Shown: one piece after another, positions 51,997-55,554 of the stretch
How positions within the stretch are numbered: the stretch's first letter is position 1
How the letters are laid out: each line of letters opens with the position of its first letter
Notes under the pieces: model-generated
Databases searched by the model: none
What the model saw: the letters and a program-made list of their open reading frames with translations, nothing else
Told to the model about the DNA's origin: nothing
Assembly (NCBI GenBank): GCA_964016885.1
Contig: OZ024740.1
Span: 60,140,001 to 60,204,000 of the forward strand
From: Eledone cirrhosa
Taxonomy: Eukaryota
DNA: 64,000 nt
Reading direction: 5' to 3'
Position numbers and translations under genes: made by a program

Positions 51997-52430
51997 ATAT
52001 ATATATATATATATATGAGTGTGTGTGTGTGTGTGTGTGTGTGTGTGTGTGTGTGTGTGTGTGTGTCTGTGTGTGTGTGTGTGTGTCTGTGTGTGTGTGT
52101 GTGTGTGTGAAATACCAATGACGGTTGGAAGATCACTGATGACGGACTAATTTTATTCATATATATATATATATATATATATATATATATATATATATAT
52201 ATATATATATACACAAATTAATGTTTTGATATCTCACTGAAAAAAATCTCTTCAACATTTTCTACTGAAAGAATCTTTTTCCTTTCTACTATTTGTTTTT
52301 ATATATATCAACTTGTGTGTTACTTTTCTACATTCGATATATATATATATATATATATATATATATATATATATATATATATATATATATATATATATAT
52401 ATATATATATATATATATATATATATATAT
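51997..52430. repeat. (TA)n and (TG)n microsatellite cluster
   Basis: Tracts at ~51997-52110, 52159-52211 and 52338-52430. Confidence 0.95.
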
Positions 52431-52439
52431 ATTAAAATA

Positions 52440-52515
52440 ACAGATTAAAATTTAAGCAAAGAATGGCTGCTTTCACCCTTAACGGGATCTTCTGAAACTA
52501 ACAAAGTCAATCTGT
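52440..52515 (-). ncRNA. Second hammerhead fold (left inverted repeat)
   Basis: Reverse-complement copy of 55379-55454 with the same CAGAAGA core; one G-C pair in P1 becomes G-U. Confidence 0.68.
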
Positions 52516-53490
52516 GAACGCAGAAGTGAATATTTCAAAAAACGTTGCAACCGGAGAAAGACAGGAAGACGATACTTTGGTTCGTGGAAACGTTCCCCGG
52601 CAAAGAACGGGAAAAAACGAATATAATACGTCATTATTCGGAGCGGTGAAAAACAATTACACGCAAAGACAAAACCACATTTATGGTATAAAAGAAGTCG
52701 TAGACTAATATTCTCTTAGGTGGTTCACAGAGACGTTCTCTGGCAATGAACGGAAAAATGAAGATAAACGTCATTTGTGGAGCGTGGAGAACAATTGCAC
52801 GCAAGGACAAAACCACGTAAATGGTATAACTGAAGTCGTAGACTAAAATTCTAACTAGGAAACCGAATGATTCTCGGCTTCAGAGTTAAGAATAAAGTAA
52901 ATAAAATACAGATAAATAAATACATACACGCATCCATATACGTACATACACAAGCATACGCGAAAACACTCGCCATAGGTATACAAATACACGCACATAT
53001 AAATATGTGTGTGTGCGTGTATACAAATAATTAAATAAACGTATATAAATAAATAAATACGTATATAACAAGCGCACTCACATACCTACACGTAAATACA
53101 CAAATGTTCGGAGATTAACGTCAAGGAAAAAAAGAAGTACACATATACACACACCCTACATACGTACGAACCCGCATACTCACACAGACGCAAAACTCAC
53201 GTATACACATAACCAAAAGCATATGTACCAGAATATATAAAATATACGCCAAAACATATACAATCAAATACACGTACGAGAAAGTATACGTTCCTTCACA
53301 AAACATACAGGTAGTATATACTTACCTATGCAAATAAGTAAGGGTATAAACATAATATATACTTAGCTACCACATCAAGACGTAAAATATCCGCGTATAG
53401 ATCGTACTATCCGTTAGGGTATAATGTGGGGCTGTAATACAGGAAGGTTTTGTGCAATTTATGTTTACAAGCCGAAATTGCCTCAGATTT

Positions 53491-54482
53491 ATACAGGTTG
53501 AGGCCAACCTCTCGATCGTTAATTAGCTCGACGTTACCCCAAATTTATCGAATGGCTTGTATTACCCGTATAGAGGGCCGAATGATACGCTTAATTACAT
53601 AAGTAAGCATTCTAACCATCCTGCCAACATAACCAAGAACCTGGTAAGAAACGTTTCTTTGAGGCTTTCCCGTCTATCTACTAAGGAGCATATTTTCAAC
53701 GACCATTCCACATATTACAATGAAGCTCTTGCTCGGGGTGGATTTGTCGATAAGGTAGCATATACAGAGTACGAGAATAGACCTAGAAGAAATAGATCCC
53801 GACGTATTATATGGTATAACCCACCATATAATATGGAGGTGGCCACACCATTAGCTAAGATCTTTCTATCCCTTATTACGAAGCATTTTCCCCCTACACA
53901 TAAATATAGTAAAATGTTTAATAGAAATACTATTAAAATGTCTTACTCTACGACTCCTAACCTTGCACATAACACCACAGCTTCAAATTTAGCTAAACTA
54001 CCTAGCCGTAGGAACACGTGCAACCCTGTAGTTAGTACTAACTGTAATTGTAGGAATCGGGTTGATTGCCCCCTATCCTGGAAATGCCTCTCTAATAACA
54101 TTGTCTACAAATGTAAGGTTGAAACACCCACTTCCCGTAGGGCCTACATAGGGTTAACCGCCAATAGATTCAAGCAGCGTCTTTACATGCATACCCATTC
54201 TTTTCGTTACCCTCTAAGAAGGAATATGACGTCACTTTCAGCTTATATCTGGAGTCTAAAAGACAACCACACCCAATATAAGTTACACTGGGAGATCCTA
54301 GATAGGGCTAGATCGTATAACGGAAATAAAAGACCATCTGAAATCTGCGCTGCTGAGGCCCTGGAAATACACTACACCACAGACCACATCTTAAACAAAG
54401 TTCTGAGGCAATTTCGGCTTGTAAACATAAATTGCACAAAACCTTCCTGTATTACAGCCCCACATTATACCCTAACGGATAG
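53491..54482 (+). pseudogene. Penelope RT thumb, Cys-rich linker and GIY-YIG endonuclease
   Basis: VN*LDVT, YYPYR.PN, SNHP, IIWYNPPY, FNRNTIKMSYS, CNCR..CPL..KC, IVYKC..YIGLT..FKQR..H; a 1-nt frameshift near 54400 restores LNK-SEAISACKH. Confidence 0.92.
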
Positions 54483-55378
54483 TACGATCTATACGCGGAT
54501 ATTTTACGTCTTGATGTGGTAGCTAAGTATATGTTATGTTTATAACATTACTTATTTGCATAGGTAAGTATATACTACCTGTATGTTTTGTGAAAGTACG
54601 TATACTTTCTCGTACGTGTATTTGATTGTATATGTTTTGGCGTATATTTTATATATTCTGGTACATATGCTTTTGGTTATGTGTATACGTGAGTTTTGCG
54701 TCTGTGTGAGTATGCGGGTTCGTACGTATGTAAGGTGTGTGTATATGTGTACTTCGTGTTTTGGTTGACGTCGTCTCCGAACATTTGTGTATTTACATGT
54801 AGGTATGTGAGTGCGCTTGTTATATACGTATTTATTTATTTATATACGTTTATTTAATTATTTGTATACACGCACACACACACACATATTTATATGTGCG
54901 TGTATTTGTATACCTATGGCGAGTGTTTTCGCGTATGCTTGTGTATGTACGTATATGGATGCGTGTATGTATTTATTTATCTGTATTTTGTTTACTTTAT
55001 TCTTAACTCTGAAGCCGAGAATCATTCGGTTTCCTAGTTAGAATTTTAGTCTACGACTTCAGTTATACCATTTACGTGGTGTTGTCTTTGCGTGCAATTG
55101 TTCTCCACGGTCCACATATGACGTATTATCTTCGTTTTTTCCGTTCATTGCCAGAGAACGTCTCTATGCACCACCTAAGAGAATATTAGTCTACGATTTC
55201 TTTTATACCATAAACGTGGTTTTGTCTTTGCGTGTAATTGTTTTTCACCGCTCCAAATAATGACGAATTATATTCGTTTTTTCCCGTTCTTTGCCAGGGA
55301 ACGTTTCCACGAACCAAAGTATCGTCTTCCTGTCTTCTTCCGGTTACAACGTTTTTTGAAATATTCACTTCTGCGTTC

Positions 55379-55454
55379 ACAGATTGACTTTGTTAGTTTC
55401 AGAAGATCCCGTTAAGGGTGAAAGCAGCCATTCTTTGCTTAAACTTTAATCTGT
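55379..55454 (+). ncRNA. Type I hammerhead ribozyme fold with variant core CAGAAGA (right repeat)
   Basis: Manual fold: P1 ACAGATTGA/TTAATCTGT plus AGTTT/AAACT; core CAGAAGA; P2 CCC-GTTAA-GGG; GAAA; P3 AGCA/TGCT; NUH = CUU with the predicted cut after 55440. Confidence 0.7.
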
Positions 55455-55554
55455 TATTTTAATAAATATTTGCTCTACGGTTCTTATATATTTGATATAT
55501 ATTTATCCTTATCGAGCCCTCTTTGGATTTTAGCCTTCAAATTTATTATTATTA

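Follow-up and report, generated by a model that had tools for sequence, protein, structure and literature searches.

We found that a hammerhead motif with adenine in place of uracil at core position 4 (A4) is carried at the 3' end of a Penelope-like element (PLE) family, here family A, in Eledone cirrhosa. The copy that led to the family lies in a stretch of 64,000 nucleotides of contig OZ024740.1 (60,140,001 to 60,204,000), hereafter the window, whose positions are used throughout. The motif sits in the pseudo-long terminal repeat (pseudo-LTR) of the element and has ~18,000 exact matches in the genome. Judging from its conservation, we put at about even the chances that it acts as a working but slow, monomer-capable self-cleaving ribozyme, for which cleavage is predicted.

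The motif and its variant core

Two 76-nt copies of the motif, one on each strand in the two inverted arms of the window element (Table 1), can be drawn by base pairing as a type I hammerhead in which all helices close. In the right copy, a distal P1 of 9 bp (55379-55387/55446-55454) and a proximal P1 of 5 bp (55395-55399/55441-55445) are separated by a one-sided bulge of 7 nt (55388-55394). The core CAGAAGA (55400-55406) is followed by a P2 of 3 bp (55408-55410/55416-55418) with a GUUAA loop, by GAAA (55420-55423), and by a P3 of 5 bp (55423-55427/55435-55439). The cleavage triplet is CUU with H17 at 55440, and the predicted cut is 55440/55441. The P3 loop has 7 nt and is non-palindromic, so the motif falls outside the minimal dimer type, which has a very short or palindromic P3. 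All consensus core letters of the hammerhead are present except U4, which is A; among those kept are G8, G12, C3-G8, A15.1-U16.1 and a non-G H17. In minimal hammerheads, position 4 belongs to the core sites that tolerate change comparatively well. The second departure from the consensus, a U10.1/U11.1 junction in place of G10.1-C11.1, is normal in the Hydra clade of PLEs. By its letters, the motif is best described as a hammerhead-derived variant lacking full consensus membership.

A sequence-only reading of the window had described a hammerhead with a CAGAAGA core in each arm. The drawing holds by pairing, though not as the minimum-energy fold; the U10.1/U11.1 junction had been passed over. 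The same reading took the matching cores of the two arms as evidence, which is uninformative, as the motif differs at 1 of 76 bases between the arms, about as expected from their 3% divergence; the genome counts given below carry the point instead. The single difference turns a P1 G-C pair (right) into G-U (left), with the hammerhead fold at -13.0 vs -10.7 kcal/mol. An inhibitory hairpin with the bulge, favored by A4, was considered and found unsupported: the A and U ensembles are nearly alike (both arms and one typical family A copy, 37 C).

Table 1. Features of the window element and its flanks
Feature	Positions	Strand	Remarks
(AT)n microsatellite, insertion target, left flank	52337-52432	.	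(TA)n preference of Hydra-clade elements (PMC8557442)
Left arm: inverted, 5'-truncated 3' end of the element (last ~80 nt of the open reading frame and 3' untranslated region), short (+29) end	52425-53490	-	
Left hammerhead motif	52440-52515	-	A4 at 52493; predicted cut 52454/52453; P1 G-C to G-U at 52450; 12.3 bits, E 0.6
5'-truncated open reading frame: C-terminal part of the reverse transcriptase (after the YRDD motif), CxCX5C linker, GIY-YIG endonuclease	53490-54482	+	
3' untranslated region/pseudo-LTR, reaching the short end 29 nt beyond the predicted cut	54483-55469	+	
Right hammerhead motif	55379-55454	+	15.9 bits, E 0.047; best match in window
Core position 4, A replacing U	55401	+	
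Tail, right arm only; equals the start of the next unit's 5' untranslated region in full-length tandem copies (long end, +115 to +117 from the cut)	55470-55555	+	
(TA)n microsatellite, right flank	55556-55615	.	

A4 across the genome

A 31-letter pattern with A4 has 17,754 exact matches in the genome, vs 184 with C, G or T at that position, which places A4 in 99% of copies by exact-pattern counts. Among the 100 non-A matches listed, a hand count gave 37 G, 35 T and 28 C, and these copies look like products of mutation after insertion. Some T4 copies are located at inversion junctions. When 57 loci were picked by protein match, with the motif not used, 84 of the 85 covering matches had A4 and one had C. 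The same family, at an identity of at least ~95% and with A4 only, occurs in contigs of three other organisms (X7, X13 and X20; contigs from 8 of the 24 listed runs covered); being the same family, these are no independent origins. A4 is also found in 36 of 36 aligned rows of an older sister family, family B (34 distinct places; one is an A-type copy). By these counts A4 is family-wide and older than family A, the change from U4 having presumably been fixed long ago in the lineage. Because A4 is family-wide, its reading as a mutation of the window copy is refuted. The family-wide U4A variant proposed at the outset is thereby confirmed, and the genome-wide tabulation of the core returned A4 as the dominant letter, not mostly CTGA copies.

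A4 sits at the center of a short palindrome, TTC-A-GAA (55397-55405), where a micro-inversion could convert U4 to A4. Several 5' truncation or inversion junctions fall 42-49 nt ahead of the cut, just upstream of the core (loci L002, L074, L092, L183, L254 and L265).

Homology to Hydra-clade hammerheads

We scanned 80 metagenome loci of the Hydra clade, several of them near-identical, with position 4 left free. A 3' motif was obtained from 55, all 55 with U4; the other 25, often with a short flank, gave none. The Hydra rows of File S2 of PMC8557442 likewise read CUGA in 26 of 26, in a list built with a CUGA descriptor, and 14 of the 26 carry the U..U junction. A covariance model was built from 35 of 38 extracted metagenome U4 motifs, three near-duplicates having been removed, and was given a rough E-value calibration. 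It ranks the right and left window motifs first and second in the 64 kb on both strands (15.9 and 12.3 bits), with E-values of 0.047 and 0.6 that are weak, and it aligns their P1, P2 and core. A natural T4 copy of family A reaches 24 bits, within the 23-28 bits of canonical motifs. The motifs in the model covary strongly in their stems, but they had been selected for pairing. The Rfam hammerhead models, a check proposed by the sequence-only reading, gave no match at the motif. Because the clade model ranks both arms at the top and the T4 copy scores like canonical motifs, homology to Hydra-clade hammerheads is well supported, with A4 as the odd letter.

That the motif is a chance look-alike, or that the window copy is merely mutated, is hardly credible. 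The missing Rfam match and the weak E-values would suit such a reading, as would the non-ribozymes that loose CAGA...GAAA patterns pick up in this genome; against it stand the presence of A4 in 99% of copies, the agreement with clade hammerheads in position, strand and U..U junction, and helices that not only close but are conserved in family B. Two sets of loose-pattern matches were rejected as hammerheads. One, a second abundant CAGA family (12,241 vs 765 control matches), lies on the antisense strand beside the canonical motif of another family and has no P1; the other consists of further repeated CAGA matches in the reverse-transcriptase coding sequence of long interspersed nuclear elements (LINEs). 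An antisense core-like sequence with A4 and a palindromic P3 but lacking P1 occurs in thousands of copies directly upstream of the canonical hammerhead of another abundant element (L183, L184, L187, L201; G000:C1) and is probably a conserved hairpin of that neighboring element.

Stems and core conserved in a sister family

Family B was reached from one old copy (locus L196), caught by a loose pattern and then used for a DNA search; the helix map had been drawn before this discovery. Its copies are decayed, at 11% from the majority sequence vs 1.6% for family A, and most of its 3' untranslated region (UTR) cannot be aligned with that of family A. Three B-type motifs obtained via a coding-region search are also CAGA (14 of the 30 loci were B-like, most of them without a motif). 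The search that found family B used an A4 pattern, and a rarer U4 sister could have been missed.

The majority bases of the two families differ at 17 of 43 four-fold sites (Jukes-Cantor distance 0.56) and at 21 of 151 amino acids. Within the motif, nine substitutions and small indels separate them, none of which lies outside the bulge, N7, and loops 2 and 3. The substitutions affect 9 of the 20 free positions and none of the 56 in stems or core (Fisher 1.2e-6), and the result is retained when the 16 positions fixed by the B-finding pattern are removed (0 of 40; Fisher 1.1e-5). The free positions change at the neutral rate, 9 of 20 vs 17 of 43 four-fold sites (p 0.79). N7 is the sole varying core position (18 T, 16 A, 1 G and 1 gap in 36 rows), and the first G and last A of loop 2 are kept in both families. 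In addition, no column with a minor state of at least 10% occurs within family A in 55379-55464 (86 nt), vs 85 such columns in 54440-55378 (939 nt; Poisson 4e-4 to 2e-3), and the divergence of the motif is 0.87% vs 2.6-4.2% upstream. Since the A-to-B changes all lie in free positions and none in stem or core, the conserved stems and core against drifting loops point to selection on the fold, and the RNA shape is likely still needed.

A proposed mechanism for slow cleavage

In the mechanism that we propose, reverse transcription would begin downstream of the cut site, as it does for PAc, a Poseidon element of the green anole. Insertions are primed downstream of the cut and read across it, so the template RNA would have to be continuous over the ribozyme, whether never cut or re-ligated; a template that must stay uncut would in turn make a fast cutter costly and a brake on cleavage useful. 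Most Hydra-clade hammerheads may be restrained by a short, often palindromic P3. In the A4 lineage, the non-palindromic 5-bp P3 and the long bulged P1 would allow monomer folding, and A4 would lower the rate in place of the P3 brake. Slow or protein-assisted cutting may then trim or circularise tandem transcripts at another stage.

Previous studies describe comparable behavior. The U4C variant of a viroid hammerhead has low activity in vitro that is sufficient in vivo, and U10.1-U11.1 is tolerated in hammerheads (PMC3088659); the PAc hammerhead is protein-assisted (PMC11167929); and PLE hammerheads are slow and may require helpers (PMC4209133). We tentatively suggest, as a possibility held with less than even confidence, that this is the first natural working A4 hammerhead, in which a brake in the core, or a dependence of cutting on the element's own protein, replaced the dimer-dependent brake of a short P3 and let the lineage amplify to tens of thousands of copies.

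Evidence against cleavage and alternative readings

A number of observations weigh against a slow working ribozyme, beginning with the fold itself. In the right arm, the hammerhead fold lies 1.9 kcal/mol above the minimum-energy fold and the predicted probability of the proximal P1 is 0.11; in the left arm, the values are 4.2 kcal/mol and 0.00. Conservation within family A reaches beyond the motif into 55307-55378, families A and B also agree well in the tail, and promoter or protein-binding roles may add to conservation around the motif. No compensatory stem change separates A from B; of the stem covariation that the sequence-only reading had proposed to tabulate, invariant stems were found and compensatory pairs were not, and the result is therefore conservation and not covariation. 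The retention of A4 across A and B would be ~60% likely under neutrality, by which A4 is shown to be tolerated but not to be preferred. The trade of a P3 throttle for a core throttle is no rule, given that this genome also contains motifs that combine a long P3 with an entirely canonical core.

The extended conservation and the lack of compensatory changes, together with a folding z-score of -0.8 vs shuffled sequences and the promoters held by Penelope pseudo-LTRs (PMC6765202), would also agree with conservation for a DNA-level or primary-sequence reason, such as an internal promoter or recognition by the endonuclease or reverse transcriptase, with the hammerhead shape as a relic. We regard this as rather improbable, for the substitutions are confined to the bulge, the two loops and N7, where they accumulate at the neutral rate, and leave all four helices untouched on both strands, an interleaving that a linear motif does not predict.

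Genomic traces of cleavage are likewise lacking where we looked for them. Copies starting at the predicted cut number 572, vs 857 at a control site 10 nt upstream. Internal mutants made up 6 of 12 inspected test loci and, by hand count, 47 of the 100 control matches listed; with these removed, insertion starts are ~290 at the cut vs ~450 at the control, which is no excess, and among the fetched junctions 0 start at +1. Contig breaks at GATC (55405-55408) were considered as RNA ends and are read as Hi-C junctions instead; no RNA run was among those listed. All insertion 3' ends lie beyond the predicted cut, and insertions routinely span an intact cut site. The blank footprint fits a slow or a dead ribozyme alike. 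Furthermore, a full pairwise screen of one type III hammerhead found low activity for every single or double mutant in the CUGA region other than the C3-G8 swap (PMC9901934), and PAc insertion in vitro is independent of cleavage (PMC11167929).

These results give the main rival its strength. According to it, the motif lost its catalytic activity with A4, and its three helices persist for a structural role, either as a binding site for the element protein or to guide reverse transcription to its two start sites immediately downstream. With 3' ends all past the cut, templates would be uncut, and Naiad elements thrive without canonical hammerheads (PMC8557442). We nevertheless consider a dead fold unlikely. 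All other letters of the catalytic core are kept and N7 alone varies, which is the pattern of a catalytic constraint, whereas the loss of G5, G8, G12 or H17 would be expected over 0.56 substitutions per silent site. The blank footprint is also weak evidence, as it was counted on the A4 family only and the active PAc ribozyme is also without RNA ends (PMC11167929).

A ribozyme that is fast, not slow, was also weighed. Here the long bulged P1, contacts of loop 2 and a G15.2-C16.2 pair in P3 would make up for A4 completely, giving a fast monomeric ribozyme with a new core. Peripheral contacts have been proposed to offset core variants (PMC3088659), the terminal G and A of loop 2 are kept in both families, and the 15.2-16.2 pair is G-C vs C-G in 35 of 35 modelled clade motifs, a contrast partly fixed by the selection pattern. 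Full compensation is, however, quite doubtful: an intact cut site is routinely spanned by insertions, none of the CUGA mutants in the pairwise screen was rescued by a second change (PMC9901934), and the rate of change in the bulge and in loop 2 is the neutral one.

Identity of the element and the copy in the window

The open reading frame (ORF) between the arms matches 130 scored places, out of 78,313 candidates in the 3.0-Gb genome, at 88-93% outside the window. All 12 loci fetched for long frames held frames of 690-714 codons, full copies having 713. The full-copy ORF carries YRDD, GASDSAE and IVY..YIG, corresponding to a reverse transcriptase (RT) with a C-terminal GIY-YIG endonuclease (EN). 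The Hydra clade is recognized by DKT, an RWK-like motif, a CxCX5C linker, CxxC and CxH replacing CCHH, and (TA)n targets (PMC8557442). In the full-copy protein we found SDKT at 114, RLRWR at 35 (RWK-like), CNCRNRADC at 564 (CxCX5C), CDLC at 662 (CxxC) and CKH near the C-terminus (CxH). Homologues among the 120 matches listed share 40-57% identity; the best matches in this genome to the nearest outside protein (57%) are family A itself. By these motifs and the identity to listed homologues, the assignment can be narrowed from Penelope to the Hydra clade. A Pfam search of the element protein gave no significant match, a PDB sequence search nothing useful, and the viral contigs no relative.

Insertion into (TA)n, tandem and inverted pseudo-LTR structures and a tail at one end were all observed. 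The tandem unit of ~3.25 kb consists of the ORF, the 3' UTR, the hammerhead and the tail, which is the next unit's 5' UTR; the motif is placed on the sense strand at the 3' end of the unit, ~130 nt ahead of the next ORF. In the fetched loci, insertion 3' ends concentrate 29 nt (77 matches) and 117 nt (71 matches) past the predicted cut.

When aligned, the inverted arms of the window copy (52425-53487 vs 54402-55469) agree at 1,031 positions, differ at 31 and show 7 gap columns, which bears out the Penelope element with ~1-kb inverted arms that had been proposed. Its end had been placed at 55464, and this has to be corrected: the sequence of the element continues to 55555. The window ORF has 94% DNA identity to a full 713-codon copy and is without the first half of the RT; a 1-nt deletion near 54401 puts its last codons out of frame, and an internal duplication of 138-140 nt lies inside the pseudo-LTR (55040-55304). 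The window copy is thus a 5'-truncated Hydra-clade PLE with an inverted copy of its own 3' end, inside (TA)n, and it is dead as an element because of the 5' truncation past the YRDD motif and the 1-nt deletion. A 5'-truncated inverted copy is a known by-product of PLE insertion (PMC8557442), and the left arm is such an ordinary by-product, of unremarkable geometry. The idea that paired outward-facing motifs serve to cleave transcripts of both strands finds no support, given this known by-product, the missing RT half and the weakened left P1.

A second young Hydra-clade family is present in the genome (L234:3240-3330, L233-L247; ORF type L075:7654-8748), with 54% identity to family A in the C-terminal part. 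Its hammerhead combines a long P3 of 5-6 bp with a U3-A8 swap and has a loop 2 of ~45 nt; position 4 is U (C in 1 of 9 aligned copies). Many canonical Penelope-type hammerheads, mostly with a palindromic P3 (TATATA, CTAG, CGCG, AATT), lie in neighboring (TA)n tracts (L028, L031, L047, L060, L071, L072, L081, L201 and others). In L071 and L256, one canonical Penelope-type hammerhead recurs every ~311 nt in a tandem array, much as in a retrozyme.

Comparison with known systems

Family A resembles Hydra-clade elements (PMC8557442) in its single RT-EN ORF, clade motifs, (TA)n targets, tandem or inverted insertions, 3' sense hammerhead and U..U junction. The Hydra-clade hammerheads compared above have CUGA and a mostly short, often palindromic P3 starting with C-G, whereas family A has A4, a non-palindromic 5-bp P3 starting with G-C, and a long bulged P1; its unit of ~3.25 kb compares with "generally <3 kb" for the clade (PMC8557442). 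With the minimal dimer-type PLE hammerheads (PMC4209133), which include a U3-A8 core variant, it shares the pseudo-LTR location and an expected low activity. Unlike them, it has a full P3 and a long P1, needs no dimer on paper, and varies at position 4 with no compensatory swap. Like natural core variants, among which U4C (viroid) and U10.1-U11.1 are described as active (PMC3088659) and A6C is known (PMC7151607), it bears a single core change. Those are rare single cases, whereas the variant of family A is the majority form, with ~18,000 exact matches. As in PAc (PMC11167929), the hammerhead is followed downstream by two fixed 3' ends that a tail separates, and ends at the cut site are unseen; PAc differs in its clade, its canonical core, a hammerhead overlapping the start codon, and a tail of 30-40 nt vs ~88 nt in family A.

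U4A is absent from the searched text of PMC3088659, and the motif strings of family A were not found in the supplement of PMC8557442. A natural A4 hammerhead or a description of family A was not found in the literature searched, which included PMC7151607, PMC11014351, PMC6765202, PMC13481778, PMC6155905 and bioRxiv 10.64898/2026.07.22.740005; subscription papers, figures and supplements could hold one.

Other features of the window

A 25-kb satellite (3615-28478) is built from a 20-nt unit repeated ~1,246 times and is strongly skewed between the strands. On the minus strand, 31674-36555 holds what we take, by its motifs, to be a broken LINE-like element, with an endonuclease-type frame (35131-33713), RT frames (33712-31674) and upstream frames to 36555. 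Also on the minus strand, the broken frames at 60615-63949, again labelled by motif, presumably belong to a Ty3/Gypsy-like LTR retrotransposon (gag, protease, RT and RNase H). A short interspersed repeat occurs four times (49382-49569, 50452-50639, 51487-51623 and 58915-59102) and recurs beside many fetched loci; we assume a resemblance to an octopus short interspersed nuclear element. The repeats would suit an octopod host.

Implications

The role of hammerheads in PLEs is an open question (PMC8557442). One of the most successful families of this genome bears a core change that is damaging in bench screens, yet its fold is apparently under selection. The 76-nt RNA compared with its one-letter revertant can tell a need for slow cutting from a need for the shape only, and would be informative either way. 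If the A4 core works, descriptors based on CUGANGA, or on CYGANGA as in PMC13481778, would overlook an entire class of retroelement ribozymes, and such variants may be present in some "hammerhead-less" Penelope families. An active A4 core would also widen the hammerhead consensus used in genome searches.

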